Below, piece by piece: positions 2,844-32,147 of a stretch of 46,785 nucleotides of DNA. Positions within the stretch are counted from its first letter, which is position 1; every line of letters begins with the position of its first letter. The notes under the pieces are model-generated. The model saw nothing but the letters and a program-made list of their open reading frames with translations. It was not told the DNA's origin and made no database searches. Made by a program: the position numbers and the translations under genes. This DNA comes from an uncultured Verrucomicrobiota bacterium (GTDB taxonomy: Bacteria > Verrucomicrobiota > Kiritimatiellia > CAIQIC01 > Lenti-01), in the NCBI GenBank assembly GCA_964397035.1, contig CAYNHA010000204.1, positions 1 through 46,785 on the forward strand, given 5' to 3'.

Positions 2844-2948
2844 GTGGCGTGGGCAATCGCCTCCGGAAGGATTCTGCGCCTTCGCTTGCAATGGGAAAGG
2901 GGGTGGAGTAGTTTCACCGGACATTTTCAAACGTAAGGAGAGTCGATC

Positions 2949-3176
2949 ATGCAAGAGAAAGTCATTCAGTTCATCGAAGAAGTGCGCCCCCTGATTCAAG
3001 GTCATGGCGGGGATGTCGAGTTTGTTTCCATGGACGGCAACACCGTCAACCTGCGGTTGCATGGCGCCTGCCATTCGTGTCCGCATGCGATGATGACGTT
3101 GAAGAATGGCATCGAGGCCGAGATGCGCGAGCGGGTGAGCCCGGAGCTGACGGTCGAACGCGTGATGGACGCGTAG
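2949..3176 (+). CDS. NifU-like (Nfu C-terminal domain) Fe-S cluster assembly protein
   Basis: AAGGAG lies 8 nt upstream of the ATG. IEEVRPLIQGHGGDVEFVSMDGNTVNLRLHGACHSCPHAMMTLKNGIE carries the CxxC motif of the NifU C-terminal domain. Confidence 0.85.
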   Translation: MQEKVIQFIEEVRPLIQGHGGDVEFVSMDGNTVNLRLHGACHSCPHAMMTLKNGIEAEMRERVSPELTVERVMDA

Positions 3177-3199
3177 GCGTTTTGCTTTTGGTATTCCCA

Positions 3200-3226
3200 G
3201 GCCGCCCCGAGGAGGGCGGCTTTTTT
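3200..3226 (+). terminator. rho-independent terminator after the nifU-like gene
   Basis: GGCCGCCC-cgagga-GGGCGGC is followed by TTTTTT. Confidence 0.6.
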
Positions 3227-3233
3227 GTGCCCT

Positions 3234-6126: not shown

Positions 6127-6963
6127 ATGCAACCCATCATAAATCTGCTTGTTCAACTCCAAGAACTCTCCATTGCCCGCGCCCAACAGGAAGTGGGCAT
6201 GCCCGGATCCCAGCTCGACCAACTGGATGCCTCCATTGCCGCGCTGACCAAGGAACTGCCGGATGCGGTCAGTCAGCAATTTTCGCGCCTGCTGCAGAAG
6301 AACCATCTGGCCATCGTGCCGGTCGTCAACGGTGGCTGCACGGCCTGCGGAATGGCCTTGCCCGTGTCGCTGGTCCACAAGGTGCACGCCGCCGAACAGA
6401 TCTACTCCTGTCCCTCTTGCGCCCGCATGCTGTTCCACCGCGATTCCGGCGCCCGCAACACGCGCAAGTCGCCCCGCCGGAGCGATCCGCCCAAGGTGGG
6501 CATTGACCGTTTTTCCGCCGAAACGCTCATGATTCCCGCCCTGAAGGGCACCGACCGCGACTCCGTCCTGGCCGAAATGTGCCAGAAACTGAAGGACGAA
6601 GGTTTCGTGGATGATGCCGGAAAACTGCTGGAATCCGCGCTCAAGCGCGAAGCCATCGTTTCGACGGCGGTGGAAAATGGTTTGGCCTTTCCCCACGTCC
6701 GCTGCGTGGAAGGCGGCGCGTTGACCCTGGCGCTGGGCATTGCGCCCAAGGGCATCAAGTTCGATCCCGCCGGAAAAGCATCCACGCGCATCGTGTTCTT
6801 CATGGTCATTCCCACCGCGGCCAGCGCATTTTATCTGAAGCTCCTCGCCGGCCTTTCGCAGGTCTTCCAGAAACAGGAAAACCGCGAGAAGCTGCTGGAA
6901 GAGGATACGCCCGAGAAATTGTGGAAGGCGTTGCTGAAGGCGACGCGCCTGGTCATCCAGTAG
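6127..6963 (+). CDS. fusion protein: coiled-coil plus C4 zinc-ribbon (COG1579-like) N-terminus and PTS EIIA type-2 (PtsN-like) C-terminus
   Basis: The N-terminus has CTACG...(22 aa)...CPSCARMLF, i.e. two CxxC pairs. The C-terminus, IPALKGTDRDSVLAEM...GLAFPHVRC...RIVFFMVIP, matches the EIIA-2 fold with the His of the FPH motif. Confidence 0.7.
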   Translation: MQPIINLLVQLQELSIARAQQEVGMPGSQLDQLDASIAALTKELPDAVSQQFSRLLQKNHLAIVPVVNGGCTACGMALPVSLVHKVHAAEQIYSCPSCARMLFHRDSGARNTRKSPRRSDPPKVGIDRFSAETLMIPALKGTDRDSVLAEMCQKLKDEGFVDDAGKLLESALKREAIVSTAVENGLAFPHVRCVEGGALTLALGIAPKGIKFDPAGKASTRIVFFMVIPTAASAFYLKLLAGLSQVFQKQENREKLLEEDTPEKLWKALLKATRLVIQ

Positions 6964-7037
6964 CCCTTGCCTTCGGCCACCTCCCGGCCGAAACTTGGGT
7001 TTGACACCGGACCCGGAATAGGTTGCCCTGTTCCCCC

Positions 7038-7556
7038 ATGAACAAACGACGCAATCTGGTTTTGCTGGGCTTCATGGGCACCGGGAAAAGCGCGCTCGCC
7101 CGCCGGGTGGCCGCGCTGACCGGCTGCCCCTATCTGGAAATGGATGCCGAGCTCGAACGCCGCGCGGGCCGGGCCATCTCGAAGATTTTCGCCGAGGATG
7201 GCGAAGACGCCTTCCGGCGAATGGAATCGCAACTGGCGGCGGAGTGGGGCACGCGCGAAGGTTCCGTCATTGCCTGCGGCGGCGGCGTGGTGCTGCGCGA
7301 GGAAAACGTGCGCGCCCTGGGTTCCAACGGCGTGTTGGTTTGCCTGACGGCCCGCCCCGAAGTCCTGCTGGAACGCACCTCCCGCTCCAAGAAGCGGCCC
7401 CTGCTGGCCGGCGAAAACCCGGAAGAGAAAATCCGGAATCTGCTCGCCGTGCGCGCCCCCCTCTACGCCAAGATTTCCCATCAGCTCGACACGTCCGATG
7501 CCGACCTGGACACGCTGGCCGAAAAACTGCTTGATCTGTGGGCGCAAGCCACCTGA
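7038..7556 (+). CDS. aroK: shikimate kinase
   Basis: LLGFMGTGKSALARRVA is the P-loop. Also present are DAELERRAGRAISKIFAEDGEDAFRRME and IACGGGVV. Confidence 0.9.
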   Translation: MNKRRNLVLLGFMGTGKSALARRVAALTGCPYLEMDAELERRAGRAISKIFAEDGEDAFRRMESQLAAEWGTREGSVIACGGGVVLREENVRALGSNGVLVCLTARPEVLLERTSRSKKRPLLAGENPEEKIRNLLAVRAPLYAKISHQLDTSDADLDTLAEKLLDLWAQAT

Positions 7557-8851: not shown

Positions 8852-9765
8852 GCGTGGACGCCGTTCAGATGGAGGAGTCGCGCGCGGGCGTGTCGTTTGG
8901 CCGAGAGGCCTGGCGCATGGTGTGGCGGAGCCGCCTGTCGCGCGCGTGCCTGGCCGTGCTGGCGGTGTTTCTGCTGGCGGCGGTTTTCGGGGAGGCGGCG
9001 CACGCGTGGTATTCGTGGAAGGATGCGACTCCGCCGTGGCAGGCGCAGAACCTGGCCGAACGGTATGGGCCGCCGTGCGCGGGCCATTGGCTGGGCACGG
9101 ACGGGCTGGGGCGCGATGTGGCACTGCGGCTGGTGCAGGGCGCGCGGATTGCCTTCCAGGTGGGCGTGGTGTCCTCGTTGATTGCGATTCCGATTGGCGT
9201 GCTGCTGGGCTGTCTGGGCGGATATTTTGGCGGGAAAACGGATGATGCCGTGGTGTGGATTTCGACGACCTTCGCGTCGATCCCGGGTTTATTGTTCGTG
9301 CTGGCGATTGCGATGGTGGTGGGAAAAGGCTTGCTGGGCGTGTTTTTGGCGATTGGACTGACGACATGGGTGGGCGTGTGTCGGCTGATCCGCGCGGAAG
9401 TGCTGCAGCAGAAGGGTCGGGGATACGTGCGGGCGGCGCGGGCGCTTGGATTTTCGCACGGGCGGATCCTGTTCCGCCACATCCTGCCGAATGTGATCCA
9501 TGTGGCGGTGGTGTCGTTCACGCTTCGCTTCCCGGCGGCGATCGGGACGGAGGTGTTCCTGAGTTTCCTTGGAATCGGTGCGCAGGGGGAGCCGAGCTGG
9601 GGATCGATGATGGCCTCGGCGCGCCTGCGGTTGTGGCAGGGCGTGTGGTGGGAACTGGCGGCCGTGACGGCGGCGATTTTTGCAGTGGTGCTGGCGTTCA
9701 ATTTGCTGGGGGATGCGTTGCGGGATGCGCTGGATCCACGTTTGAGAACCACAAAGGACTCCTGA
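8848..9765 (+). CDS. peptide/nickel-type ABC transporter permease (DppC/OppC-like)
   Basis: There is an ATGA overlap with the upstream permease stop. HWLGTDGLGRDVALRLVQGARIA and YVRAARALGFSHGRILFRHILPN are typical motifs. The listed start at 8335 lies inside the upstream gene and is rejected. Confidence 0.88.
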   Translation: MSVDAVQMEESRAGVSFGREAWRMVWRSRLSRACLAVLAVFLLAAVFGEAAHAWYSWKDATPPWQAQNLAERYGPPCAGHWLGTDGLGRDVALRLVQGARIAFQVGVVSSLIAIPIGVLLGCLGGYFGGKTDDAVVWISTTFASIPGLLFVLAIAMVVGKGLLGVFLAIGLTTWVGVCRLIRAEVLQQKGRGYVRAARALGFSHGRILFRHILPNVIHVAVVSFTLRFPAAIGTEVFLSFLGIGAQGEPSWGSMMASARLRLWQGVWWELAAVTAAIFAVVLAFNLLGDALRDALDPRLRTTKDS

Positions 9766-15574: not shown

Positions 15575-16368
15575 GCGCGGAATTGGGCATGGAAGTGATT
15601 GGAGTGGAGCACCTGAGCAAATCCTTCGGGACGGTCGAGGTGCTGAAGGACATCACCTTCACGGTCCGGAAGGGCGAGGTGCTGGGCGTGATTGGCCCTT
15701 CGGGCTCCGGGAAATCCACGCTGTTGCGGTGTTTGGCCCAACTGGACACGGTGGCCAACGGAACCATCCGGGTGTGCGGGGACACCTTGGTGGAGCCGCA
15801 TCCGCACCATCCGGGAAAACCGCGATATGCGCACAAGGGAATGCTGAGGAAAATCGGACTGAGAATCGGTCTGGTGTTTCAAAACTTCAATTTGTTTCCA
15901 CATTTTTCGGTGATGCGCAATTTGACGGAAGCGCAAATCCATGTGCTGGGAATTCCGCGGGAGGAAGCCCGGAAAACGGCGCTGGCGCTGCTTGCCAAGA
16001 TGGGGCTTTCGGACAAGGCGGAAGCCTATCCCTTCCAGCTATCGGGAGGGCAGCAGCAGCGCGTTTCCATTGCGCGGGCGCTGGCGCTGCGGCCGGAGGT
16101 GTTGTGCTTTGATGAGCCCACGAGCGCGCTGGATCCCGAACTGACGGGCGAGATCCTGAAAGTGATCCGCGCGCTGGCGGCCGAAAAAATGACGATGGTG
16201 GTGGTGACGCACGAAATGGCGTTTGCAAGGGATTTGGCGGATCACATCATTTTCATGGATCACGGGGTGGTGGTGGAGCGCGGCATGGCCGATGACGTGA
16301 TTTCGCGGCCGCAGCAGGACCGTACGCGGGCCTTTCTGGGAAGACTGGAAGGCAGGGACGGGACGTGA
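15571..16368 (+). CDS. amino-acid ABC transporter ATP-binding protein
   Basis: There is an ATGA overlap with the permease stop. It has Walker A GPSGSGKST, signature LSGGQQQR and Walker B VLCFDEPTSALD. Confidence 0.92.
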   Translation: MSAELGMEVIGVEHLSKSFGTVEVLKDITFTVRKGEVLGVIGPSGSGKSTLLRCLAQLDTVANGTIRVCGDTLVEPHPHHPGKPRYAHKGMLRKIGLRIGLVFQNFNLFPHFSVMRNLTEAQIHVLGIPREEARKTALALLAKMGLSDKAEAYPFQLSGGQQQRVSIARALALRPEVLCFDEPTSALDPELTGEILKVIRALAAEKMTMVVVTHEMAFARDLADHIIFMDHGVVVERGMADDVISRPQQDRTRAFLGRLEGRDGT

Positions 16369-17126
16369 GGAATCGGGGAAACGAGTATATCTTTTGCGAT
16401 GGACAACTGCTGGTGCGGGCGGGCGGCTTGGAGCCGGCGTGTTTTTCGGATGTGCTTTTGGAACTGCAAAAGACCCGGGAGATCCAGGATTCCTTCACGG
16501 TGCGCCCGCAGGGGTTCCTCGGGGCGGAAGTGTCCGGCGCGGCGGAAAATCCGCCGGATGGTTTTGCGTGGGTGCGGGTGCGGCAGTTGATCGCGGAGAA
16601 TTCGCCGGATGTGGCGGCGGCGTGCCGGACGCTGGGGCTGCTGAACTGGCGGGCCAAGCACAAGTTTTGCGGCGCGTGCGGGAGCCCGATGACGGAGCAT
16701 CCCAAGGAAGTGGCCCACCTTTGCGGGGCGTGCGGGCACACGGATTATCCAAGCGTCTATCCGGCGGTGATCGTGCGGGTGGAAAAAGAAGGAAAGGTTT
16801 TGCTGGCGAGGCACGTACACCGCATTCAGGAGATTTTCACTTGCCTGGCGGGATATGTCGAAGTGGGGGAAACGCTGGAAGAATGCGTGCGGCGCGAAGT
16901 GCGGGAGGAAGCCGGCATCGAGGTGGACGATATTCGCTATGCGGGGAGCCAGCATTGGCCGTATCCCAACCAACTGATGCTGGCGTTCAAGGCCACATGG
17001 AAATCGGGCGAGCTTTGCCTGCAAGAGGATGAGCTTTCCGAAGCGCGCTGGTTCGATCCATCGGAATTGCCCCCGATTCCACCGGAAGGTTCGGTGGCCT
17101 ACCGTTTGATCCGGGGCCTGATATGA
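16365..17126 (+). CDS. nudC: NADH pyrophosphatase (Nudix hydrolase with zinc ribbon)
   Basis: There is a GTGA overlap with the upstream stop. The Zn ribbon is CGACGSPM...CGACGH and the Nudix box is GYVEVGETLEECVRREVREEAGI. SQHWPYPNQLMLAF is the NudC-type motif. Confidence 0.85.
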   Translation: MRNRGNEYIFCDGQLLVRAGGLEPACFSDVLLELQKTREIQDSFTVRPQGFLGAEVSGAAENPPDGFAWVRVRQLIAENSPDVAAACRTLGLLNWRAKHKFCGACGSPMTEHPKEVAHLCGACGHTDYPSVYPAVIVRVEKEGKVLLARHVHRIQEIFTCLAGYVEVGETLEECVRREVREEAGIEVDDIRYAGSQHWPYPNQLMLAFKATWKSGELCLQEDELSEARWFDPSELPPIPPEGSVAYRLIRGLI

Positions 17127-17143: not shown

Positions 17144-20100
17144 ATGACGGAACGGATGCTGTTTCTGGATTTGGAGACCCATCGGGAAGGGGATGGCATT
17201 TCCAAGGCGGGGCTTTGCATCGAGTCGCTGGATGGGGGCATGGCGTGGTTGTGGGAGGCGGCGCAGCCGAAGCGTTTGTTGGAAACCCGTTTGGATGATG
17301 CGCTGTTTGGCGCGGAGGCGATTTCGGGCCACAACATTTGGCGGCATGACCTGCCGGTGCTGGCCAAGACATTTCCGAATCTGGCCTTGCTGGAACAGTT
17401 GCCGGTGGTGGACACGCTGGAGCTGTCGCCGTTGTGTTTTCCGCGGAATCCGTATCACGCTCTGGAAAAGGACTACAAGCCGACGGGACGGGAGGAAAAC
17501 GATCCGCTGGGCGATGCGGTTTTGGCGCGACAATTGCTTCGCCGCGAGATCGAGGTGCTGAATGAATTGCGCGGGAGGGATCCGGTGTTTCATCGCGCGC
17601 TGCACGGGCTCTGCGCGACCGGCGGAGGGCGCCTGGAAAAAGGCTGCGCGAGGGTGTTCGGAGGGGCAGCTCCCGCGGAAGGGGTGGTGGTCGAGGCCAT
17701 CCGGGCCTGTGCGGGACGGAATGGGTGCGCAACGGCGGCCAGCCGGTTGGAGCTGCCGTCGTCCCGGGAGGAGCGGATGGCGCTGGCGTATGTACTGGCG
17801 TGGCTTTCGGTGGCGGGCGATTGCCGGTCCGTATTGCCGGGCTGGGTGTGGAAGCAATTTCCGAAAAGCCGGGAAATGGCGTCCCGGTTGCGGGATGTGC
17901 CTTGCGGAAGTCCATCGTGTTCGTGGTGCGGAAAGCAGTTCGATGCCCGTGCGCGGTTGAAACGCTGGTTCCCGGAATTCCGGGATTTCCAGGTGGATGA
18001 AAACGGCCACAGCTTGCAGCGGGAGATCGTGGAGATGGCGCTGGGAGGGAAATCGCTGTTGGCGATTTTGCCGACGGGGGGAGGAAAATCGCTCTGCTTC
18101 CAACTGCCGGCGCTGGCGCGGATGGAGCGGCGGGGGATGCTGACGATCATTCTGTCGCCGCTGCAATCCCTGATGAAAGATCAGGTGGATCAGTTGTCTC
18201 GTCGTGTGCCGGCGATTCAGGGGTGCGCGGCGGCATTGAATGGGTTGCTGTCGCCGCTGGAGCGACGCGACGTGCTGCATCGCATCGCCATGGGCGATGT
18301 TTCGTTGCTCTACATTGCGCCGGAGCAGTTGAGAAGCCGGTCGTTTTTCAATGCGGTCTCGCAGCGCGAGATTGGCGCGTGGGTATTTGACGAGGCCCAC
18401 TGCCTTTCCAAATGGGGGCATGATTTCCGCACGGATTATCTCTACGCCGAGCGGTTCATCCGCGAACGGATGGGATCGCCCGTGGCGCCGGTGATGTATG
18501 TGACGGCCACGGCCAAGAGCGAAGTGATCGCCGAGATCCGCGCCTTCCACGAATCGATGACGGGTGAGCGCAATTTGCCGCTCTTTGAGGCTCCGCTGGA
18601 TCGTCCGGGGCTGAAGTTCGAAGTGGTGAAGGCGGCACCGGGCTTCGAGCGGATGAAGAAAATCTCCGAGATCCTTTCGGAGCGATTGGGCGCGTATGGA
18701 AGGGGTGGGGCGATTGTCTTTCGTTCCTCCCGCGCCAAGGCCCGGGAGACTTCTGAATTTCTGCTCAAGGAAGGGTGGAAAGCCGCCCACTACCATGCGG
18801 GGCTTCCGCCGGAAGAGAAAAAAGAAGTGCAGGATCGGTTCATTGCGGGCGATTTGCAGGTGATCGCGGCAACGAATGCGTTTGGCATGGGCGTGGACAA
18901 AGAGGACGTGCGAGTGGTTATCCATGGTGACATGCCCGGATCGGTTGAAAACTACATCCAGGAGGCAGGCCGGGCGGGGCGCGATCGCCGGGAGGCCGAC
19001 TGCATCTTGCTGTTCGACGACAACGATGCGGACTGGCAGTTCAACCTCAACGGGATGAACCGGCTGGGGCGGCGCGAAATCGCGGAGATTCTGCGGGCGT
19101 TGAGAAAGCACAAGCGGAAGGACGGGGATGCGCTTGTGGTGACGGTGGGCGAGTTGATGCAGGATACGCGGCTGCAGGAGGTGCTGGATCCGGAGGACCG
19201 CGGATTGAACACCAAGGTGAAAACGGCAATTTCGTGGCTGGAGCGCGCGCACTACTTGAAGCGCGACGACAATGTGGTGAATGTGTTCCAGGCGCGTCCG
19301 GTTGCGAAGACGCGGAACGAGGCGGAAGCTCGGGCTCTGGAATTGGGAGAGCCGCCGGAGCGCCAGAAATTGTGGGGCGACATTCTGAATGAATTCGTGG
19401 CGGCCCGGGCGGACGGGGGCATTGATGCGGACCGTTTGGTAACGCTGCCCTCGCTGTGGGAGTGGAACCAGAGGCAGGAGTGTCCCCGGAGTGCAATCCG
19501 GCTGCATGGATTGCTGTTCAGCGAACTGCGCGCCATGTCGAAGGCGAAGGTGCTGAAGGAATGCACTTCGATGTCGGCCTATGTGCGGCACAAGATTGCG
19601 GATCCTTCCCGCTTGCGGCTGGAGAGATTGTCGCGGGCGGAACAACGGTTGCACGAGTTGCTTCTGGAACAGGGAGCGATGTCGGGGGAGGAACTGGTGC
19701 TGGATACGGCGGTGCTGAACCAGCGGCTGAAGGACGAAGGCGAAAGCGAAGCGGGGTTGCACGATTTCGGGAGGATGGTCCAAACGTTGTCGGGTCTGGA
19801 AGAAGGGGGGAGGCGCTTGTTGGAAATCCGTCCGGGAAGTGCCACCCGCCACCACATTCGATTGAACGTGGAGATGCCGAAGGTTGCGGAGATGGCGGCG
19901 CGGCGCCGGGAGGAGGCGGCCCGCGTGTTGGAGGCGATCCTGGCGCAAATTCAGCACGAAACGCCGGGAGGCAAAGATGTGTTGGCTGAATTCACAATGG
20001 ATGAATTGTGCGAGGCGCTGGAATCGGGGTCGCTGTTGCAGACGGGGCCGCAAAATGCCGCCGCTGCCGCCGAGCGGGCGTTGCTGTGGCTGCACGATTT

Positions 20101-22321
20101 GCAGATCATTCGCTTGCAACGGGGGTTGGCGCTTTTCCGGACGGCGATGACCCTGCGGGTGGAGGCGGAGCCGTCGCGCGGGTATGGCGTGAAGGAATAC
20201 GCCCCGCTGGGCCTTTACTACGAGGAGAAGACGTTCCAGGTCCATGTGATGATGGAATATGCCCAGCGCGGATTACAGAACATGCAGGCGGCTCTGTCGC
20301 TGGTGCTGGATTATTTCCGCCTCGACAAGCGGCAATTCATCGAGCGGTATTTTCCGGGCCGAAGGAAAGAGCTGGAGCGGGCAGCCACGGCGGAAGCGTA
20401 TCGGAAGGTGGTGGAAGAGCTGGGCGACGAAGAGCAGCGGCGGGTGGTGGAGGCCAATCCCGAGCAGAATTGGCTGGTGTTGGCGGGCCCCGGTTCCGGA
20501 AAGACGCAGACGGTGGTGCACCGGATGGCCTGGCTGTTGAAAATCCAGCATGTGCCGGCGCAATCGCTTTTGGCGTTGTGTTTCAACCATGAAGCGGCCG
20601 TGCAGTTGCGCCGCCGCCTGCGTGCGTTGGCGGGGGATGCGGCGAACGGCGTGACGGTGATGACGTATCACGGGCTGGCGATGCGGCTCACGGGGACATC
20701 CTTTTCGGCCTTGGCCGGACGTTCCGCCGCGGGAACAAAGGCTTCGGGTGAAATGGATTTCGAGCAGCCCCTTCGGGATGCCATTCGGCTGTTGCGGGGT
20801 GAATGGACGGTGGAATCCGCCGAGAGGGACGAGGCGCGTGACCGGTTGCTGGCGGGATTCCGCTATATTCTGGTGGATGAGTATCAGGATGTGGACGACC
20901 TGCAATATGAGCTGATTTCGGCATTGGCGGGACGCACGTTGAAGGATCCGGATGCCAAACTGGGGCTTGTGGCGGTTGGGGACGATGACCAGAGCATTTA
21001 TGCCTTCCGCGGGGCGGATGTCCGGTTCATCCGGCGCTTTGAGAAGGACTACGAGGCCGAGATGTGCGGTCTGACGTCGAACTACCGGTCCAGCAAGGCC
21101 ATTTTGGATGCGGCGGGTCGGGTGATTGCGGAAAACCGAGGCCGAATGAAGGCGGATCTGCCGATTCATGTGGATCGGCGGCGGAGCAAGGATCCTTCTG
21201 GCGAGCCCGTCCGACTGTTGGAAGTCAAAGATTTGGAAACCCAGGCGCTGGAACTGTTGCGACAGGTTGAAAACTGGCACAAGGCGGGAGTGGACTGGAA
21301 GGACATGGCGGTGTTGGGGGTGAACCACGAAGATTTGGATGCATTCCGTTCCGTAGCGGAATCCGAATCTGTTCCCCTGAATGTGAGGATATCGCCGGGG
21401 GAGTGGGCCAAAGGGTCTGGTTTGCCTGCCTTGTGGCGCATGCGCGAGTGCATGATGCTGCTGGAAAAACTGCAGGCCCGGGCCGGCCAACGGGTTTCCC
21501 GCGGGACATTGGAGGAGGCGATTGCAGCGGTTCGCCAAGCGTGTGGAGGTGGAACGTGGCCGGATTTGCTGGCGTCCATGGGGGAGGATTTCCCGGAAGA
21601 GGAGGCCGATGCAGAGGAGTGGATCGAATATTTTCATGAAAGTTTGGCCGGATTTCGTCGCGAGGGGCGTTTGGGAAGACAGGGTATTTGGCTGTCGACC
21701 CTTCATGCCGCCAAGGGGACGGAACATGGATGCGTGGCTGTTGCTGGCCGTTGGCAGAACCCGTGGCGCAAGGACCCAGAGGAGGCGCGTCGCTTGCTCT
21801 ATGTGGGCATGACGCGGGCCAAGCATGCATTGGCGGTTGTGGATTGGTCGGAAGAGGGGTGCCCGATTCTGGATCCGTTGAGACGGACGGACTCGGTGAT
21901 TCGGGAAAAAGAGACTGAGCCCAAGGGGAGGTTGCCGTTGAAGAGGTACCGCGTGCTGGGGCCAGCCGATTTTGATTTGTCCTTTGCGGGGAGGGGAGAC
22001 GCGGGACGGGTGGAGCGAATTGCCAAGGCGTTGGGAAAGGTTCGAGAGGGGGAACGGTTGAATTGGGAAGAGACTCGTTCGGGAATTATCCTCAAAACGG
22101 CGGAAGATGGGGTGGCGTTGTTATCCAGGGACGGGTCTCGACGGTTCATTCAGCATGCGGGACAGGTGGAAGAAATCCGAGTATTGGGCGTTTACGGCTG
22201 GCGGAAGGAAGATGCTGAACCTGAATGGCGAAAGACATATGCTACCAACCGGTGGGGAATTCCGCTGTGCGAAGTGGTGTTGAGACGGGAAGAGGGTGAA
22301 AAAAGGGATATAGTTTTATAA
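17144..22321 (+). CDS. 1725-aa multidomain helicase: DEDD exonuclease-like N-terminus, RecQ-type SF2 helicase, long linker, UvrD-type SF1 helicase, and an unknown C-terminal domain
   Basis: The N-terminus has FLDLET, GHNIWRHDLPVL and DPLGDAVLA. The RecQ part has LPTGGGKSLCFQLPA, FDEAHCLSKWGHDFR (DEAH at 18389-18400), NAFGMGVDKEDVRVVIH and QEAGRAGRD. The UvrD part has LAGPGSGKTQT (about 20486-20506), ILVDEYQDV, VGDDDQSIYAFRGA, SNYRSS, LHAAKGTEH and YVGMTRAK. Confidence 0.85.
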   Translation: MTERMLFLDLETHREGDGISKAGLCIESLDGGMAWLWEAAQPKRLLETRLDDALFGAEAISGHNIWRHDLPVLAKTFPNLALLEQLPVVDTLELSPLCFPRNPYHALEKDYKPTGREENDPLGDAVLARQLLRREIEVLNELRGRDPVFHRALHGLCATGGGRLEKGCARVFGGAAPAEGVVVEAIRACAGRNGCATAASRLELPSSREERMALAYVLAWLSVAGDCRSVLPGWVWKQFPKSREMASRLRDVPCGSPSCSWCGKQFDARARLKRWFPEFRDFQVDENGHSLQREIVEMALGGKSLLAILPTGGGKSLCFQLPALARMERRGMLTIILSPLQSLMKDQVDQLSRRVPAIQGCAAALNGLLSPLERRDVLHRIAMGDVSLLYIAPEQLRSRSFFNAVSQREIGAWVFDEAHCLSKWGHDFRTDYLYAERFIRERMGSPVAPVMYVTATAKSEVIAEIRAFHESMTGERNLPLFEAPLDRPGLKFEVVKAAPGFERMKKISEILSERLGAYGRGGAIVFRSSRAKARETSEFLLKEGWKAAHYHAGLPPEEKKEVQDRFIAGDLQVIAATNAFGMGVDKEDVRVVIHGDMPGSVENYIQEAGRAGRDRREADCILLFDDNDADWQFNLNGMNRLGRREIAEILRALRKHKRKDGDALVVTVGELMQDTRLQEVLDPEDRGLNTKVKTAISWLERAHYLKRDDNVVNVFQARPVAKTRNEAEARALELGEPPERQKLWGDILNEFVAARADGGIDADRLVTLPSLWEWNQRQECPRSAIRLHGLLFSELRAMSKAKVLKECTSMSAYVRHKIADPSRLRLERLSRAEQRLHELLLEQGAMSGEELVLDTAVLNQRLKDEGESEAGLHDFGRMVQTLSGLEEGGRRLLEIRPGSATRHHIRLNVEMPKVAEMAARRREEAARVLEAILAQIQHETPGGKDVLAEFTMDELCEALESGSLLQTGPQNAAAAAERALLWLHDLQIIRLQRGLALFRTAMTLRVEAEPSRGYGVKEYAPLGLYYEEKTFQVHVMMEYAQRGLQNMQAALSLVLDYFRLDKRQFIERYFPGRRKELERAATAEAYRKVVEELGDEEQRRVVEANPEQNWLVLAGPGSGKTQTVVHRMAWLLKIQHVPAQSLLALCFNHEAAVQLRRRLRALAGDAANGVTVMTYHGLAMRLTGTSFSALAGRSAAGTKASGEMDFEQPLRDAIRLLRGEWTVESAERDEARDRLLAGFRYILVDEYQDVDDLQYELISALAGRTLKDPDAKLGLVAVGDDDQSIYAFRGADVRFIRRFEKDYEAEMCGLTSNYRSSKAILDAAGRVIAENRGRMKADLPIHVDRRRSKDPSGEPVRLLEVKDLETQALELLRQVENWHKAGVDWKDMAVLGVNHEDLDAFRSVAESESVPLNVRISPGEWAKGSGLPALWRMRECMMLLEKLQARAGQRVSRGTLEEAIAAVRQACGGGTWPDLLASMGEDFPEEEADAEEWIEYFHESLAGFRREGRLGRQGIWLSTLHAAKGTEHGCVAVAGRWQNPWRKDPEEARRLLYVGMTRAKHALAVVDWSEEGCPILDPLRRTDSVIREKETEPKGRLPLKRYRVLGPADFDLSFAGRGDAGRVERIAKALGKVREGERLNWEETRSGIILKTAEDGVALLSRDGSRRFIQHAGQVEEIRVLGVYGWRKEDAEPEWRKTYATNRWGIPLCEVVLRREEGEKRDIVL

Positions 22322-22331
22322 AACATGACCC
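22300..22331 (+). repeat. 32-bp direct repeat, copy 1 (covers the last 6 codons, the stop and 10 nt downstream of the helicase gene)
   Basis: AAAAAGGGATATAGTTTTATAAAACATGACCC is identical to 22444-22475. Confidence 0.95.
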
Positions 22332-22443: not shown

Positions 22444-22475
22444 AAAAAGGGATATAGTTTTATAAAACATGACCC
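22444..22475 (+). repeat. 32-bp direct repeat, copy 2
   Basis: It is a perfect copy of 22300-22331, located 144 bp downstream inside a low-GC intergenic stretch. Confidence 0.95.
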
Positions 22476-26245: not shown

Positions 26246-27054
26246 AAATCAGTGTCCTCACCACCCTCTACAACCGGCCGGATCACCTGCGCCTGCTGGT
26301 GGCGTCGCTGCTGGCCCAGACCCGCGTACCCGACGAATTGGTGGTGGCCGACGATGGTTCCGATGAAGCCACCGTGGCGGCCACAACTCGGCTGTTGTCC
26401 ACGTGTAGGATTCCCTCGACAGTGGTGAGGCAGGAGAAAGACGGCTATCGGCTGGCGGCGGCCCGCAACAAGGCCATTCGAGCCTCCACGGGGGACTACC
26501 TGCTTTTCCTGGACTGCGACATTGCGCTCTTGCCCGACGCGGTGGACCAGCACCGGCGGCATTCCGCGCCGCGCCGCCTCCTGTGCGGCAACCGGGCTTT
26601 GCTGGATGAAGTGGTGACGAAAGCCCTGATGGCGGCCGTGCCCTCGCCCTCCCCGGAGGACTGGGAAATGGCATGGGCGGCCGCCGATGTGGCCGAGCTT
26701 GCGGAAGCCGCTCGCCTGTTTGCGCGGCAAGCCGCGTTGAGGCGCTGGCATGTGGCCCGTCCGCACAAACCCAAATTGCTGGGGTGCCATTTTTCGCTCT
26801 TCCGCGACGACGTGGTGGACGTGAACGGGTTCGACGAGAATTTCGTGGGCTGGGGCTATGAAGACGACGACTTTGCCCGCCGCCTGTACAAAACGGGCGT
26901 GGAGCCCCGGAGTGTGATTCACGAGGCCCGCGCGATGCACTTGTGGCATCCCTCGCTGGCCCCGCAGGCGTTGGAGCGGCATCGCGACCGGCCCAACCGC
27001 GCCTATTTCCGACGGTGGCGCGTGAAGGCATTTTGCCAGAATGGACTCAAATGA
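26242..27054 (+). CDS. family 2 glycosyltransferase
   Basis: There is a GTGA overlap, and GGAGG lies 6 nt upstream. ISVLTTLYNRPDHLRLLVASL, VVADDGSDE, LFLDCD and FVGWGYEDDDFARRL are present. Confidence 0.85.
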   Translation: MKISVLTTLYNRPDHLRLLVASLLAQTRVPDELVVADDGSDEATVAATTRLLSTCRIPSTVVRQEKDGYRLAAARNKAIRASTGDYLLFLDCDIALLPDAVDQHRRHSAPRRLLCGNRALLDEVVTKALMAAVPSPSPEDWEMAWAAADVAELAEAARLFARQAALRRWHVARPHKPKLLGCHFSLFRDDVVDVNGFDENFVGWGYEDDDFARRLYKTGVEPRSVIHEARAMHLWHPSLAPQALERHRDRPNRAYFRRWRVKAFCQNGLK

Positions 27055-28265
27055 AAATGGATTGGACCGAAAAAACGTGGATCGTGGCCACCTGCGGGCG
27101 CGGCTGCGCCGATGTGCTCAAGGGCGAGCTCCGCGCCATGGGCTATGAGCCGCAGGATGTCTCGCCGACTTCCGTTGGAATCGAAGGCGATTTGCGCGAT
27201 GCGATGCGCCTGAACCTGTGGCTGCGGACGGCGAACCGGGTGCTGTTCGAAGTGGGAGGGTTCGAGGTGGATTCCGCGGACGACCTCTATGCGGCCGTTC
27301 GCGAACTGCCGTGGGAGCTGTGGCTTCGCCGGGATGTTCCCTTCCACGTGCATGGCGTGGCCCAGCACGAGACCATCCGCGATCCCCGCTATGCCGTGCT
27401 GCGCTGCAAGGACGCCATCGCCGACCGGTTCGTGGACATGACCGGCGCGCGTCCCGACTCGACCTCGACCCCCGACGGCGCCTCGTGCGTGGCCCTGTAC
27501 TGGAAGGAGCGGTCCGCCCAGATATTCATCGACACCAGCGGCGCGCCGCTTTCGCACCGCGGCTATCGCTGGCGTTCGTGGGTGGCCCCGCTGCGCGAGA
27601 CTCTGGCGGCCAGCATCCTGCTGGAAGCAGGCTGGGGCCGGAACAGCGCGGAAGCCTTCATCGGCCCCATGTGCGGCAGCGGAACGCTGGCCATCGAGGC
27701 TGCGTGGATGGCGCAGAACCGCGCCCCCGGCCTGGAGCGCGAAGACTATGCCTTCCTGCACCTGAACGATGTGGACACGTCCGCCTGGCAGGAGCTGAAG
27801 GACGAAGCGCGCGCCAAATTCATCGCGGCTCCCCGCACATGGATCGCCGCCTCGGACGTGGATGCGCAGGCGATTTCGTGCGCGCGGGAAAACGCCGAGC
27901 GGGCCCGGGTGGCCGGCATGATCCGCTTCCACACCTGCGATTTCCGCGACACGCCGCTGCCGAAGCCGCCGGCGATGGTCCTGATGAATCCCGAATACGG
28001 CGAGCGCATGGGGGAGGAAGAGCGCCTCGTGACGCTCTACGAATCCATCGGCTCCTACTTCAAGGACAAGTGCCAGGGCATGCGCGCGCTGGTCTTCACC
28101 GGGAACCTGCCGCTGGGGCGCAAAATCAGCCTGCATCCCGTCCGCCGCGTGGCCCTGTGGAACGGTGACATCGAGTGCCGCCTGCTGGAATACGACATCT
28201 ACGAAGGCACCCGCGATGCCCGCCTGATCCGCAAGCATGGCGGCGCCGGAATTCCGCCACAATAG
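27051..28265 (+). CDS. THUMP-domain class I SAM-dependent RNA methyltransferase (RlmL/COG0116-like)
   Basis: There is an ATGA overlap. The N-terminus has a ferredoxin-like/THUMP pattern. PMCGSGTLAIEAA is the SAM motif I and MNPEYGERMG is the NPPY-like motif IV. Confidence 0.8.
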   Translation: MKMDWTEKTWIVATCGRGCADVLKGELRAMGYEPQDVSPTSVGIEGDLRDAMRLNLWLRTANRVLFEVGGFEVDSADDLYAAVRELPWELWLRRDVPFHVHGVAQHETIRDPRYAVLRCKDAIADRFVDMTGARPDSTSTPDGASCVALYWKERSAQIFIDTSGAPLSHRGYRWRSWVAPLRETLAASILLEAGWGRNSAEAFIGPMCGSGTLAIEAAWMAQNRAPGLEREDYAFLHLNDVDTSAWQELKDEARAKFIAAPRTWIAASDVDAQAISCARENAERARVAGMIRFHTCDFRDTPLPKPPAMVLMNPEYGERMGEEERLVTLYESIGSYFKDKCQGMRALVFTGNLPLGRKISLHPVRRVALWNGDIECRLLEYDIYEGTRDARLIRKHGGAGIPPQ

Positions 28266-28304
28266 ACTATACTTTCCGCAAGTTTTTCCTAGGATGGGGG
28301 GAAC

Positions 28305-29288
28305 ATGAAACTCAGCGTTCCCATCTTGTGCTACCGCGTCATCTCGCCGGTGTGTGGAATCACGCCGGAGGAATTTCGCGCGCATCTGGAGTGGCTGGCC
28401 TCGCACGGCTGGCACAGCATTCCGCTCGACGACGTCATCGATTACGTCAAGGGCGGCGCCGAGCCCCCGAAGCTTTCCTATGCGCTCACGTTCGACGACT
28501 GCTATCTCGACAACTGGGTCCATGCCGCGCCCGTTCTGCATGAATACGGCGTACGCGCCTCCTTCGGCTGCGCCACGGCCTACCTGCACGACGGTCCTCG
28601 CCGTCCCGACTCCGCCACACCGGGTGCCGACCTGCGTGAACTGCCCGTGGCTCGCGATGCGTGGGACCGAGCCATCGAGCGCAACGACCCCACCGCCTTC
28701 ATGAACCGCACCGAGCTCAAGGCCCTTGTGGAGCAGCAGGGACACGGTCTCTTTGGCCACACCCACACGCACCAGGCCTGTTTCAGCTCCAACAGGCCCA
28801 TTGGCCAGGTGCAGACCGACATCCATCCGGGCGTGCATGGCATCTACCTGGAAATCCGCGACGGCCAGCCCATGTATGCCAGCGGATCCGCCTATGCCCA
28901 CAACGGCTTCTGGCCCGAATCCAGCGATCCGCTGGATACCCATTTGGCGGAGCGGACCACCAGCGAGCGCATCGAGTTTTGCTTGAACGAATTCACCCTC
29001 TGCCGCGAGCGCCTCGAAGAGCTCACCGGAAAACCCTCGCGCGCGATGAGCTGGCCCTGGGGCGAATACGACGGCGTGGCCATCGAGGCGGCGCTGCTGG
29101 CGGGCTACGAAGCCGCGCTGTCGATGGACTGCGGGGCCAACCGCCCGGGCACGCCGCTCTTTGCGCTGCGCCGCATCCGGATGCAGGGCGGCGTGGGCTG
29201 CCGCGAGCTCCACCACCGCCTCTTCATCGCCCAGAATCCGCTGCTGGCCGCCCTCTTCCGCAAGACCTACCGCCGCGCCCGGGGTTGA
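28305..29288 (+). CDS. polysaccharide deacetylase (NodB-homology) family protein
   Basis: ALTFDDCYLDNWVHAAPVLHEYGVRASF, FGHTHTHQ and MSWPWGEYD are present. Confidence 0.8.
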   Translation: MKLSVPILCYRVISPVCGITPEEFRAHLEWLASHGWHSIPLDDVIDYVKGGAEPPKLSYALTFDDCYLDNWVHAAPVLHEYGVRASFGCATAYLHDGPRRPDSATPGADLRELPVARDAWDRAIERNDPTAFMNRTELKALVEQQGHGLFGHTHTHQACFSSNRPIGQVQTDIHPGVHGIYLEIRDGQPMYASGSAYAHNGFWPESSDPLDTHLAERTTSERIEFCLNEFTLCRERLEELTGKPSRAMSWPWGEYDGVAIEAALLAGYEAALSMDCGANRPGTPLFALRRIRMQGGVGCRELHHRLFIAQNPLLAALFRKTYRRARG

Positions 29289-29294
29289 ACCGGT

Positions 29295-29335
29295 TTTTCC
29301 ACAGTGTGGAAAAAAGTTTTCCACAGTGTGGAAAA
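29295..29335. repeat. perfect 22-bp-phased pair of TTTTCCACAGTGTGGAAAA
   Basis: Copies lie at 29295 and 29317, beginning 7 nt after the deacetylase stop and ending 11 nt before the dus start. This is the reverse-complement orientation of the 7945 cluster (central G versus C). Confidence 0.95.
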
Positions 29336-29345
29336 CTCGCTTAGG

Positions 29346-30419
29346 ATGGCGCGCATGTCTGACTTCCAGCTCCAACCGTTGCAACTGGGGACGCTCCGAA
29401 TCGAGTGGCCCGTTTTTCTGGCGCCCATGGCGGGGTATACCGATGGGGCGTTCCGCTCGCTGTGTCTGGAAAAGGGGTGCGGCGCGGTGGTGACGGAAAT
29501 GGCGAATGCGTACGGGCTGACGATCGACCACCTGCGCACGGGCTACTACCTGCATACGTGGGGCGAGGAGCATCCCATCGGGGCGCAGATCTACGGTTCC
29601 GATCCGGCGGTGATGGCGGCGGCGGCGGCCAAGGTGGCGGAAACGAAACTCTTCGATTTCCTGGACATCAACGCGGGCTGCCCGATGCCGAAGATCCGCA
29701 ACCGCGGCGACGGGGCGGGGCTGATGCGCGATCCGGCCCGGATGGCCGAGATCGTGCGGCAGGTGAGGGCGGCGGCGGGGGAGGCAATGCCGGTGACGGT
29801 GAAGACGCGAATCGGCTGGTGCGCGGACACGATCAACGTGATGGAGACGACGTCGGGGGTGGAAGAGGCGGGCGCGGCGGCGATTTTCCTGCACGGGCGG
29901 GTGGCGGCGGTGCGCCATTCGGGGCCGTCGAACTGGGACTTGATCGCGGAAACGAAGCGGGCGCGCAGGATTCCGGTGATCGGCAACGGCGGCATCAAGA
30001 CGGCGGCGGATGTGTTCCGGATGGTGCGCGAGACGGGCGTGGATGGCGTGATGGTCGGGCGCGTGGCGCTGGGGAATGCGTGGCTGTTCCGCGACATCCG
30101 GGAGCTGGCGGCGGGGCGCGAGCCGCGCCTGCCCGCGGTGGAGGAAGTGAGGGCGGAAATCCGGGAGCACCTGCGGAGGGAAATCGCGCTGATGGAGCGG
30201 CGCGGCCGCCGGGAGCTGAAGATGGGCGCGGAGCTGACGGCGTGCCTGGTGATGCGTCCGCATCTGGTTCGCTATCTGCGGGGCTTCCGCGAATTCGGGG
30301 CCCTGGCGCGGACGCTGGAGGAGCGGGTGGATGCGGCGACGCTGCTGGGGCGGATCGACGCGGTGCTGGCGTCGGGCCGCAAGTGCGAACCTCTCCCGGA
30401 GCTTGCGGGAGGGGATTGA
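29346..30419 (+). CDS. tRNA-dihydrouridine synthase
   Basis: FLAPMAGYTDGAFRSLC, DINAGCPMPKI, TVKTRIGW and GNGGI are present. The listed start at 29304 lies inside the repeat and is rejected. Confidence 0.88.
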   Translation: MARMSDFQLQPLQLGTLRIEWPVFLAPMAGYTDGAFRSLCLEKGCGAVVTEMANAYGLTIDHLRTGYYLHTWGEEHPIGAQIYGSDPAVMAAAAAKVAETKLFDFLDINAGCPMPKIRNRGDGAGLMRDPARMAEIVRQVRAAAGEAMPVTVKTRIGWCADTINVMETTSGVEEAGAAAIFLHGRVAAVRHSGPSNWDLIAETKRARRIPVIGNGGIKTAADVFRMVRETGVDGVMVGRVALGNAWLFRDIRELAAGREPRLPAVEEVRAEIREHLRREIALMERRGRRELKMGAELTACLVMRPHLVRYLRGFREFGALARTLEERVDAATLLGRIDAVLASGRKCEPLPELAGGD

Positions 30420-30464
30420 GTCGAGTCGGAATTGGAACAGGCGGAGGAGGATCATCGCGACGCT

Positions 30465-32147
30465 ATGAAACGGATCACGATTCTTTCCTGTCTGGTGTGG
30501 GTGGCTGGATTCGCGGGACCTGCGGGCGGGCAGATGGTTCCGCCGAATCCGGATTTGGCGTATCCGGAAGGGCAGGTGAACAGCGACACGGCGGACATTG
30601 TTCGCAACAAGCCGCGCATCGATGCGGAGCCGGTGGATCAGGACGAGTTGGCGCAGGCGCACCGCCCGAAACTGGATGAAATGGGGGCGGAATTGCTGGC
30701 GGAGGCGATGATGCAGCGGCTTCAGCCGCCCCGGCAGACGGCGCTGGCCAAACTGAATCCGAGCTTCGAGACGATGGCGGTGGCCTATACCGATCTGGGA
30801 ACCTATGTGCGCGATCAGGGAGTTCCTTCTGAACGGCTGGAGAATGGCTATGTTCAACTGACGTTTTTGCAACGGGCGGGGGAGGACAGTGTTGGCGTGC
30901 GACTGGCGGATGCGATTCTGGCATCCAAGGGAGGGCTGCGTCCAGGAGATGTGATGGGGCTCGCAATCGAGATCTGCGGGGGGGATGTGCCGCTGGCCGC
31001 GCTGGCGGTGCATACGCTGTTGAAGGAGGCCAAATACCAGTCGATCCCGACCGAAACGAATCCCAAGCCGACGGGACTGGCCATGGTGGGGGAGTCGAAG
31101 GTGATGAGCCGTACGGGGCCGCGGGTGGAATCGCGCTCGGCGGCGGAATTGATGGCCAAGCTGGTGGATTTGCGACCGGCGGGAGACCTATATGTCCAGG
31201 ACAAAATGGGGCCGTGGTATCACGCGTTCGGATTGCTGTTCGTGGGGACCGCTCTGAGCCCGGATTCGGCGATGGTCGGATCCATGGGGGAAAATGCCTG
31301 GCGATATTTCAACATTCGCAGCCATTGGGATCCGGCGAAGATGGAAGTGAACCGATGGGCCGCCGAAGAGACCTATGCACTGGGATTGCTGATGCAGTGG
31401 CAGTCGGCGGCGACGATCTCCCAGCATCGGGGCTGGTATGTGCCGCGCTTCCTGGACAAGCTGAAGGAGGATGAGCTGGAGCAGATCCTGCAGGATTTGC
31501 ACGCGATGGATCGATTTCTGGTGAACGGGAAGCATCCTGCCTCCCTGCGCCGGGCGGTGGCCATTCACCTGGAGCGGGTGGAGAAGGAATTGCTTTCCCG
31601 GCGCAATCCGCTGGTCTATTGCACCTCGATCCGGGATTCGAAGGGGCAGGCGCGCTCCCGGCCGGAGATGAGCGTGGCGCTGTTTCCACCCAATCAGACG
31701 GTCTACATCGAGAGCCTGCGGGTGCCGCGTCCCACGCCTCCGCCGGGCCCAGCCGTCCCGCGCACATCGGGCACGCCGGTGCTGCCGCCGTGGGCGGAAG
31801 AGGAACCGAAGGCAACGAAACCCGCCGAGAAAGACGACACAGCGTATGACCTGTGGCTGAGGCAGATCCGGCTGCCCTACATGCGGGAGGGAGAAATCAT
31901 GAAGCGGTTTCCAGCCTCAGAGTTGGGGGGTGTTGGGATGCAGGGCGATCTGGTGTTCCGCGGGAGCGTTCAGGGGCGAAGGGTGATGTTGGAGGTGACC
32001 TATCCGCCGGAGAATCGCGGAAATGGGTTGCCGGTGTTGGAGGGAGGCACGGCGGTGCTGATGTTCGATTCTCCGAAGCCGCCGGATTCCACTCCGCCGG
32101 AGCCGCCGAAGGATGGCGTGACCCTTTTCTATCCGCCGGGCATGTAA
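30465..32147 (+). CDS. secreted protein of unknown function (560 aa)
   Basis: GGAGGAGG lies upstream. The signal-like N-terminus is MKRITILSCLVWVAGFAGPAGG. Codon usage is consistent, and a Pro-rich linker sits near aa 440-480. I recognise no motif. Confidence 0.6.
   Translation: MKRITILSCLVWVAGFAGPAGGQMVPPNPDLAYPEGQVNSDTADIVRNKPRIDAEPVDQDELAQAHRPKLDEMGAELLAEAMMQRLQPPRQTALAKLNPSFETMAVAYTDLGTYVRDQGVPSERLENGYVQLTFLQRAGEDSVGVRLADAILASKGGLRPGDVMGLAIEICGGDVPLAALAVHTLLKEAKYQSIPTETNPKPTGLAMVGESKVMSRTGPRVESRSAAELMAKLVDLRPAGDLYVQDKMGPWYHAFGLLFVGTALSPDSAMVGSMGENAWRYFNIRSHWDPAKMEVNRWAAEETYALGLLMQWQSAATISQHRGWYVPRFLDKLKEDELEQILQDLHAMDRFLVNGKHPASLRRAVAIHLERVEKELLSRRNPLVYCTSIRDSKGQARSRPEMSVALFPPNQTVYIESLRVPRPTPPPGPAVPRTSGTPVLPPWAEEEPKATKPAEKDDTAYDLWLRQIRLPYMREGEIMKRFPASELGGVGMQGDLVFRGSVQGRRVMLEVTYPPENRGNGLPVLEGGTAVLMFDSPKPPDSTPPEPPKDGVTLFYPPGM

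Follow-up and report, generated by a model that had tools for sequence, protein, structure and literature searches.

We analysed a stretch of 46,785 nucleotides (nt) from an uncultured bacterium of the Verrucomicrobiota (assembly GCA_964397035.1, contig CAYNHA010000204.1, positions 1 to 46,785; this whole stretch is hereafter called the window). Between positions 17144 and 22321, its forward strand carries a single gene whose predicted product of 1725 amino acids (aa) unites an exonuclease fold with two complete helicase motors. The open reading frame (ORF) begins with ATG, runs without any internal stop codon and terminates at 22319-22321. The order of modules along the chain is a divergent DEDD exonuclease, a helical module with four cysteines (Cys4), a RecQ core, a linker of 450 aa, a UvrD core and, at the C-terminus, a domain of about 150 aa. 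The gene and its parts are as follows:

17144-22321, forward strand: exonuclease-RecQ-UvrD fusion gene, a single ATG-start ORF of 1725 aa
17144-17578, forward strand: divergent DEDD (DnaQ/PolB-exo-like) 3'-5' exonuclease fold, aa 1-145 (AlphaFold2 model, Foldseek, residue invariance)
17579-17998, forward strand: helical module with four cysteines, aa 146-285 (DSSP assignment of the AlphaFold2 model, cysteine invariance)
17999-19063, forward strand: RecQ-family helicase core of superfamily 2 (SF2), aa 286-640 (Pfam, NCBIfam and PDB matches, motif invariance)
19064-20413, forward strand: family-specific linker, aa 641-1090 (several invariant blocks, sub-threshold matches to winged helix-turn-helix domains)
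20414-21853, forward strand: UvrD/PcrA/Rep-type helicase core of superfamily 1A (SF1A), aa 1091-1570 (Pfam, NCBIfam and PDB matches, motif invariance)
21854-22318, forward strand: C-terminal alpha/beta domain, aa 1571-1725 (AlphaFold2 model with six strands and three helices, mean predicted local distance difference test, pLDDT, of 86.5)

A first-pass annotation, made from the DNA sequence alone, had described this locus as one frame joining three modules. Its description was borne out by the intact 1725-aa frame and by the same single-ORF layout in many homologues, and the motif positions it gave were correct (DEAH at aa 416-419, i.e. nt 18389-18400; GPGSGKT from aa 1115, i.e. nt 20486). Pfam confirmed the RecQ-type and UvrD-type modules together with their borders, with all matches far above the cut-offs (DEAD at aa 291-461, Helicase_C at 516-614, UvrD-helicase/AAA_19 at 1098-1303 and UvrD_C at 1513-1566), while the exonuclease fell below the Pfam threshold and was seen by structure. 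Among the PDB matches, no single entry spanned more than one module of the fusion protein. To our knowledge, no characterised enzyme carries an SF2 RecQ motor and a UvrD motor of superfamily 1 (SF1) on one polypeptide.

The fusion is kept across many phyla. Searched against 5.8 billion proteins, the fusion had more than 120 full-length homologues of 1710-1796 aa, with 42-85% identity and the same Pfam set; where the database gives them a name, it is "RecQ family ATP-dependent DNA helicase". Among 185,579 species representatives of GTDB (one genome per species), at least 584 loci were confirmed. Their hosts belong to Verrucomicrobiota, Kiritimatiellia, Lentisphaerae, Alpha-, Beta- and Gammaproteobacteria, Desulfobacterota, Bdellovibrio, Acidobacteriota, Binatia, Gemmatimonadota and Methylomirabilota. 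Locus-level comparisons were made on the best 80 of these at least 584 loci, and nearly every complete copy among them consisted of a single ORF, 1700-1800 aa long, that was colinear with the query.

These data bear directly on another explanation of the architecture, namely an assembly or frameshift error that fused two or three separate genes. Its only counterpart in the data is a set of six related loci (L011, L013, L016, L023, L026 and L067) in which the helicase frame is split into shorter ORFs, although the tblastn match spans nearly the whole query; these six look like pseudogenes or errors in metagenome-assembled genomes. On the other side stand the more than 120 full-length homologues from independent sources, about 55 independent complete loci with one colinear ORF of 1690-1800 aa, and finished plasmids on which RefSeq annotates a single coding sequence. 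Conservation of the single-ORF architecture among homologues thus led us to reject the artefact, to which we assign a practically negligible chance.

Residue conservation was examined in 56 full-length members from Verrucomicrobiota, Lentisphaerae, Alpha-, Beta- and Gammaproteobacteria, Desulfobacterota, Acidobacteriota, Binatia and Gemmatimonadota. All checked catalytic residues were invariant or nearly so: K315, DEAH, WGHDFR and QEAGRAGR of the RecQ core, GKT, DEYQD, VGDDDQ and Y..TR of the UvrD core, and the acidic residues of the exonuclease. From this, it can be inferred that all three activities are jointly under purifying selection. That very distant bacteria conserve the fusion residue for residue speaks for a single integrated mechanism and against a chance fusion. 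Average-linkage clustering of the proteins partly tracked taxonomy, with groups of Verrucomicrobiota, Alphaproteobacteria and Desulfobacterota, and partly crossed it, Betaproteobacteria being intermixed with Gammaproteobacteria and one Puniceicoccaceae sequence lying among them. As judged from this protein comparison, such a pattern indicates vertical descent of the fusion gene with some horizontal transfer.

The RecQ core contains Walker A with K315, the DEAH box at 416-419, the aromatic loop SKWGHDFR and motif VI QEAGRAGRD. It scored 284.3 bits against the NCBIfam model recQ_fam (TIGR00614, cut-off 219.8), which places it in the RecQ family, and the PDB cores of RecQ, RECQ1, BLM, RECQ5 and WRN aligned to aa 286-650; the E values for RecQ, RECQ1, BLM and WRN were 1e-42 to 1e-66, with 8e-66 for RecQ cores. 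The equivalog model of bacterial RecQ (TIGR01389), however, was matched only over model positions 16-336 of 591 and with 317 bits, far from its cut-off of 640, so that the protein falls outside canonical RecQ. No Pfam match to RQC, HRDC or RecQ_Zn_bind was found in the fusion protein at E <= 0.1.

A similar situation was encountered with the UvrD core. Its motifs are GPGSGKT (K1120), DEYQD at 1245-1249, VGDDDQ at 1278-1283 and Y..TRA at 1553-1559, and its Pfam matches were UvrD-helicase (PF00580, 147.5 bits), UvrD_C (PF13361, 63.7 bits), AAA_19 and UvrD_C_2. UvrD and PcrA from the PDB aligned to aa 1092-1390 with E values of 1e-34 to 1e-38. The best NCBIfam models for this core were those of UvrD, PcrA and Rep, which places it in SF1A, but all these equivalogs stayed far below their cut-offs and matched the motor core alone; the SF1 module is therefore a member of the family and not an orthologue of any of them. 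As judged by these matches, it is only through its motor cores that the fusion protein belongs to the RecQ and UvrD-like families.

SF1A helicases of the UvrD/PcrA/Rep type translocate in the 3' to 5' direction, and so do helicases of the RecQ family. The same polarity has been reported for RecQ-like helicases such as RqlH (PMC3378886), and both motors of the fusion protein are expected, from their family membership, to move 3' to 5'. The first-pass annotation had instead assigned the SF1 motor the opposite polarity and had compared the protein to RecBCD or AddAB, i.e. to a bipolar machine on a single chain, in which the two motors would run along the two strands of a DNA end during resection. 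Two motors and a nuclease are indeed present on a single chain, and RecB and AddA family models gave weak partial matches to the SF1 core. Nevertheless, the bipolarity of RecBCD stems from its SF1B subunit RecD, and neither an SF1B (RecD-like) module nor a PD-(D/E)xK nuclease was detected with Pfam, NCBIfam or the fold search of the C-terminal domain. The second motor is a RecQ helicase of SF2, and the DEDD exonuclease lies at the chain end opposite to the SF1 motor. As both motor classes share one polarity and the RecD-like and PD-(D/E)xK modules are missing, the assumption of opposite polarity is not supported, the protein falls outside RecBCD/AddAB-type enzymes, and the bipolar model is at odds with the family assignment; we regard it as very improbable.

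As for the N-terminus, no Pfam family exceeded the threshold there; single sub-threshold matches to RNase_H_2 (E = 0.027) and RNase_T (E = 0.23) were the closest, and a profile search of PDB sequences with aa 1-290 gave no significant match. With 20 family sequences as input, AlphaFold2 yielded a model of aa 1-290 that had a pLDDT of 88.8 and a predicted template modelling score of 0.87. Its top Foldseek matches were E. coli Pol II, archaeal PolB and the N-terminal domain of S. aureus DinG (E values of 0.01-0.1, probability about 1.0), followed by weaker, lower-ranked matches to T7 DNA polymerase, the EXO-like domain of Exuperantia and EXD2. The best matches were all DEDD-type exonuclease domains, a class that degrades DNA from the 3' end. 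In the beta-alpha core (aa 1-145), the motifs could be assigned as ExoI D9-x-E11, ExoII H63-N64-x3-(H/F)68-D69 and ExoIII N119-D120-P-x2-D124, and the metal-binding acids D9, E11, D69 and D124 were present in 56 of the 56 members. With an RNase H-like fold and the four acidic residues, the domain qualifies as a DEDD exonuclease; the exonuclease proposed at first sight was thus recovered through predicted structure and invariant acids and not through Pfam.

The general base that defines the DEDDh and DEDDy subclasses, a His or Tyr four to five residues before the last Asp, is replaced in this family by N119 (53 of 56 members) and D120 (50 of 56). Its absence had been noticed correctly in the first-pass annotation, which considered the nuclease possibly degenerate. 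Degeneration is unlikely, because all metal-binding residues are invariant in the 56 members and so is a neighbouring loop (N102-P-Y-H105, K109 and Y111). This argues for an active site that is working or at least strongly constrained, as far as conservation can tell, and not decayed. As a matter of speculation, the invariant NPYH/K/Y loop (aa 102-111) could replace the general base.

In the same model, DSSP assigned helices across residues 121-275. Four cysteines of the helical module (C195, C254, C259 and C262) were invariant in 56 of 56 members and might form a putative Zn or Fe-S site. When the N-terminal 290 aa were used as a query, 943 clusters at 50% identity were retrieved. Most of the full-length proteins among the listed matches were 1650-1900 aa long and carried the match at their N-terminus, while the shorter ones probably represent contig fragments. 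Therefore, the exonuclease and Cys4 modules appear tied to one another and to the fusion architecture.

The linker gave no match in Pfam, in PADLOC or in the PDB, the last searched with a profile of 56 sequences. Sub-threshold matches to winged helix-turn-helix families (DUF4194/MksE, TrmB, MarR, Crp, IclR and DprA_WH) appeared in up to 8 of the 56 members. Winged-helix modules within the linker may be suspected from these matches, and a winged helix following the core would fit RecQ architecture, but we treat this as a lead and not as a result. The C-terminal domain contains the invariant residues Y1602, L1605, S1661, W1704, P1707 and E1710 and had neither Pfam nor PDB sequence matches. It had been delimited at first to about 185 aa of unrecognised fold; the size proved to be about 150 aa with a mixed alpha/beta structure, and a significant match of the model to PDB structures was indeed not found (the best was 3k2y, E = 0.07). 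In BFVD, the best matches of the model were weak and concerned uncharacterised phage proteins (E = 8e-4), with phage proteins annotated as HIRAN ranking lower (E = 0.26). In fork-remodelling helicases, it is the HIRAN domain that binds 3' DNA ends; a HIRAN resemblance of the modelled C-terminal domain may be taken as a lead only.

Among characterised enzymes, the closest in outline is WRN, in which a DEDD-fold exonuclease likewise precedes the RecQ core; the helicase core of WRN aligned with an E value of 2e-42, and both proteins are expected to pair 3'-5' unwinding with 3'-5' trimming. The analogy to WRN drawn in the first-pass annotation is thus a fair outline of how the protein may work, although the fusion is no member of the WRN type. 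The exonuclease of WRN is of the RNase D/Pol A type and has Tyr in ExoIII, whereas the fusion protein lacks a match to PF01612, has N/D at that motif and finds its nearest folds in PolB/Pol II and DinG. The RQC and HRDC domains of WRN were not detected in it, and beyond the WRN layout it has the Cys4 module, the linker of 450 aa, a full UvrD motor and a C-terminal domain that is novel. The resemblance looks like independent (convergent) assembly and not like orthology. An N-terminal DEDD exonuclease fold joined to an SF2 helicase is also shared with S. aureus DinG, whose structures 9ii8 and 8zef were among the best structural matches, but the helicase of DinG is of the XPD/DinG type, while the fusion protein has a RecQ-type one and a second motor in addition.

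The RecQ motor with all its signature motifs, including the aromatic loop, is shared with bacterial RecQ and with RqlH/PsyrT. From bacterial RecQ, the fusion differs by its score below the equivalog cut-off and by the lack of Pfam signatures of the Zn-binding, WH and HRDC domains; from RqlHI/PsyrTA, by the lack of an antitoxin-like adjacent partner and by about three times greater length. Similarly, a complete UvrD-type core is shared with UvrD/PcrA/Rep and with GajB of Gabija. In the fold search, solved C-terminal regions of UvrD and PcrA were unlike the C-terminal domain of the fusion, in which the UvrD module makes up the C-terminal half, and the GajA partner of GajB is absent. Matches of PADLOC models to the fusion protein were restricted to the generic helicase cores (DpdF among them; PsyrT model, E = 2e-78; GajB models, E = 7e-52), and PADLOC version 2 contained neither a curated nor a candidate model for the fusion, its family-specific regions remaining without a match. 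The partner genes that define Dpd, PsyrTA and Gabija (the dpd cluster for DpdF, PsyrA and GajA, respectively) were not found, no neighbour at all being conserved among the best 80 loci. Since only the cores are matched, the partners are absent and the family-specific regions are not modelled, the fusion, judged by its sequence, is not DpdF, PsyrT or GajB. Finally, RecBCD, AddAB and AdnAB also unite motors and nuclease in one machine; the fusion differs by its single chain, by a DEDD instead of a PD-(D/E)xK nuclease, by the lack of an SF1B motor and by one motor belonging to SF2, and no evidence of Chi-type regulation was seen. Two UvrD-like motors of the same polarity within one resection machine are known from the mycobacterial AdnAB (PMC3378886, introduction).

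Most likely, the protein would act as a single-chain helicase-exonuclease, with 3' ends, nicks or gaps as the sites from which DNA would be unwound and resected, as far as its domain composition allows such a prediction. It would load on DNA with a 3' single-stranded tail, a nick, a gap or a fork. The 450-aa linker would tether the two 3' to 5' motors on antiparallel strands, so that a nick or gap would be opened in both directions; alternatively, the tethered motors could engage two arms of a branched molecule or fork. The N-terminal exonuclease beside the RecQ core would trim the exposed 3' end in a WRN-like manner, and the UvrD module might instead serve as a protein-stripping translocase. 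All three enzymes would be active within one stand-alone chain.

We also examined whether the genes surrounding the fusion are conserved. All-against-all ORF clustering of the best 80 loci revealed no neighbour cluster in more than three loci, and the 111 immediately adjacent genes belonged to 107 Pfam families, none of which was present in more than two loci. Owing to this lack of a conserved neighbour, the fusion gene is to be regarded as a stand-alone unit. Most immediate neighbours were housekeeping genes (for example GatB, MreB, 6PGD, PNPase and pyruvate carboxylase). Synteny was seen at the level of clades, i.e. between the window and its closest relatives L001 and L002, and as the order PNPase-tRNA-helicase in L010 and L033. 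These last two loci are from Rhodocyclaceae and contain tRNA-Pro/Arg/His between PNPase and the helicase (at 9247-9620 and 2893-3232, respectively). In three other betaproteobacterial genera, tRNA-Arg(CCG) was located within 0.4-3.6 kb of the helicase (L018, 8122-8198; L038, 15378-15454; L055, 6327-6403), with a gene for a HipA-like kinase in between in L018. In total, 17 tRNA genes were counted in about 960 kb of flanks, a mild excess over the roughly 12 expected from a rough background of about 50 tRNA genes per 4 Mb. No integrase was found beside the nearby tRNAs; the tRNA-adjacent genes were housekeeping or HipA-like.

Plasmid carriage was evident from 14 PLSDB records with a match covering at least 80% of the protein. 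The respective plasmids and chromids come from Thiothrix, Paracoccus, Cereibacter, Sulfitobacter, Microvirga, Rhizobium, Croceicoccus and Allochromatium. On pTfr153 of Thiothrix, the fusion gene lies near a type I-D CRISPR-Cas system and a SWIM/DEAD helicase pair, and on pALVIN01 of Allochromatium, it adjoins a type I restriction-modification system and an HNH endonuclease. A separate gene for a '3'-5' exonuclease' of about 200 aa was found 1.5-9 kb downstream on both plasmids (pTfr153, L081, 18670-19251, reverse strand; pALVIN01, L082, 23608-24225, forward strand), which may be due to chance or to a module common to these plasmids. None of 50,697 phage records contained a full-length copy of the fusion. 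Among the 111 adjacent genes, PADLOC recognised IetS, a type II restriction endonuclease, DzbA, Cas2 and several PDC candidates, and Pfam added EcoRII-C, PLDc_2, DUF4143/AAA_14 and a Schlafen-type helicase. The outer flanks contained a CBASS system and type I specificity subunits. In a far-flank control at the same loci, the number of PADLOC families was no lower than in the adjacent set, generic models inflating both counts.

As for the biological role, we favour, with a probability of roughly 45%, an accessory genome-maintenance enzyme acting on nicks, gaps, stalled forks or DNA ends, either retained within lineages or exchanged horizontally. This role is suggested because the domains are of repair and recombination type, the genomic context is mostly housekeeping, synteny is kept within clades, the protein clusters partly track taxonomy, PADLOC has no model for the family-specific regions and hallmarks of mobile elements are absent. 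Several observations weigh against it. The distribution is sporadic (at least 584 loci among 185,579 species representatives) and, taken together with the plasmid records, resembles that of accessory or defence genes more than that of core repair genes; the intermixing of beta- and gammaproteobacterial proteins, and the true defence genes among the neighbours (CRISPR-Cas and restriction-modification on the plasmids, PADLOC matches next to the gene, CBASS and type I specificity genes further out) point in the same direction. The LexA box CTGT-N8-ACAG was not enriched upstream of the gene (one exact and eight one-mismatch occurrences versus 0.2 and 8.3 expected). Moreover, the exonuclease has N119/D120 in place of the usual His or Tyr general base, and its activity is a prediction only.

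Many of the same observations would be accommodated by defence. Other one-protein helicase-nuclease defences, Hna and Nhi, exist, and RecBCD acts on linear DNA. By analogy, the motors and the exonuclease could load on invading DNA at free ends, nicks or replication intermediates, which would then be degraded or stalled, with the C-terminal domain or the linker serving as a sensor. A single-gene defence or surveillance role of this kind is a tentative but quite conceivable alternative, being in line with the sporadic multi-phylum distribution and signs of horizontal transfer, the large single-gene format with no conserved partner, the absence of SOS boxes, the phage proteins among the best structural matches of the C-terminal domain, the 14 plasmid records with both inspected plasmid loci beside defence genes, and the defence-model matches in the immediate and outer flanks. 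Against this role, no enrichment of the defence-model matches relative to the far flanks could be demonstrated. In addition, neighbours are mostly housekeeping genes (in the window, transporter operons and nudC flank the gene), no integrase or transposase recurs at the loci, neither a PADLOC v2 model nor a full-length phage copy exists in the sets searched, and no obvious means of discriminating self from non-self DNA was recognised. In its boldest form, this alternative would amount to a partner-free, one-protein immune system whose tethered 3' to 5' motors and exonuclease recognise invading DNA, or its replication intermediates, via the C-terminal or linker domains and destroy it. We consider that form rather doubtful; if true, such a system would be present in hundreds of species from at least eight phyla or classes. 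A function in the service of mobile elements appears improbable, be it processing or protection of DNA of plasmids or integrative and conjugative elements, anti-restriction, or replication and maintenance of large secondary replicons. The gene does occur on large plasmids and chromids of eight genera, and polyvalent proteins of conjugative elements are known to contain UvrD-like and helicase modules (PMC5512222), but most of the examined loci appear chromosomal and lack nearby transfer, replication or integrase genes, the two inspected plasmids were typed as non-mobilizable, and the phage records were devoid of full-length copies.

With RecQ and UvrD motors joined to a DEDD exonuclease, the fusion represents a large, already sequenced and apparently uncharacterised family. 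The first-pass annotation had called it uncharacterised, and this holds as far as we could find: no published account of the exonuclease-RecQ-UvrD architecture was encountered in the open-access literature, which is itself no proof of absence, and no PADLOC model covers the family-specific parts. The papers on RqlH (PMC3378886) and on polyvalent proteins (PMC5512222) do not describe it either. The family could show how motors of the same polarity cooperate, for example in bidirectional gap widening, fork remodelling or stripping of proteins during unwinding, and could provide a bacterial, genetically tractable analogue of WRN-type coupling of exonuclease and helicase. It is possibly also a new single-gene defence system. 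Hundreds of entries now named "RecQ family ATP-dependent DNA helicase" could gain proper annotation. Cultured carriers are available, including Allochromatium vinosum DSM 180, Thiothrix fructosivorans, Cereibacter, Rhizobium, Azoarcus, Thauera, Methylomonas and Azospirillum. The gene bears the locus tag ALVIN_RS15835 in Allochromatium vinosum and J1836_RS00275 in Thiothrix.

In the window itself, the fusion gene is preceded by genes of an amino-acid ABC transporter and by nudC, and followed by a gene for a hydrolase of the metallo-beta-lactamase fold in the opposite orientation and by peptide-transporter ATPases. Its closest surroundings contain the following features:

16365-17126, forward strand: nudC (NUDIX plus Zn-ribbon, by Pfam), 17 nt upstream of the fusion gene
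22300-22331, forward strand: 32-nt direct repeat, copy 1, from which the fusion gene takes its last seven codons and its stop codon and which holds the palindrome GTTTTATAAAAC
22444-22475, forward strand: 32-nt direct repeat, copy 2, 144 nt downstream of copy 1, in a patch of 52% GC

The upstream position of nudC had been noted before, with a gap of 18 nt that is in fact 17 nt, and the context had been read as compatible with either a repair enzyme or a surveillance module. The two genes are probably co-transcribed. However, nudC was found upstream of the fusion only in the window, in L001 (9222-9980) and in L002 (about 6446-7177), the gap of about 17 nt being shared by the window and L001. 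Since this linkage is lineage-specific, it offers no functional clue for the family, and nudC was rejected as a functional partner.

The duplicated 3' end of the gene, initially called att-like, is an exact direct repeat of 32 nt (AAAAAGGGATATAGTTTTATAAAACATGACCC; 0 matches expected by chance) in the 52% GC patch. The repeat is unique within the window and was absent from the 81 other loci (L001-L081). In the closest relative, L001, both the C-terminal tail and the downstream region differ, and downstream synteny stops exactly at the stop codon. The repeat looks like a scar of an insertion or recombination event.

On the forward strand of the window (1-46785), GC skew was almost uniformly positive, at about +0.2 to +0.3 per kb, with dips at about 6-8 kb and 26-29 kb. 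Such values are far above typical bacterial replication skew, which suggests that composition in this lineage is strongly strand-specific or that gene orientation is strongly biased. Elsewhere in the window, two further ORFs of great length were seen, one of 1336 aa on the reverse strand (27003-31013) and one of 1042 aa on the forward strand (37704-40832), the latter with relatives at two of the related loci.

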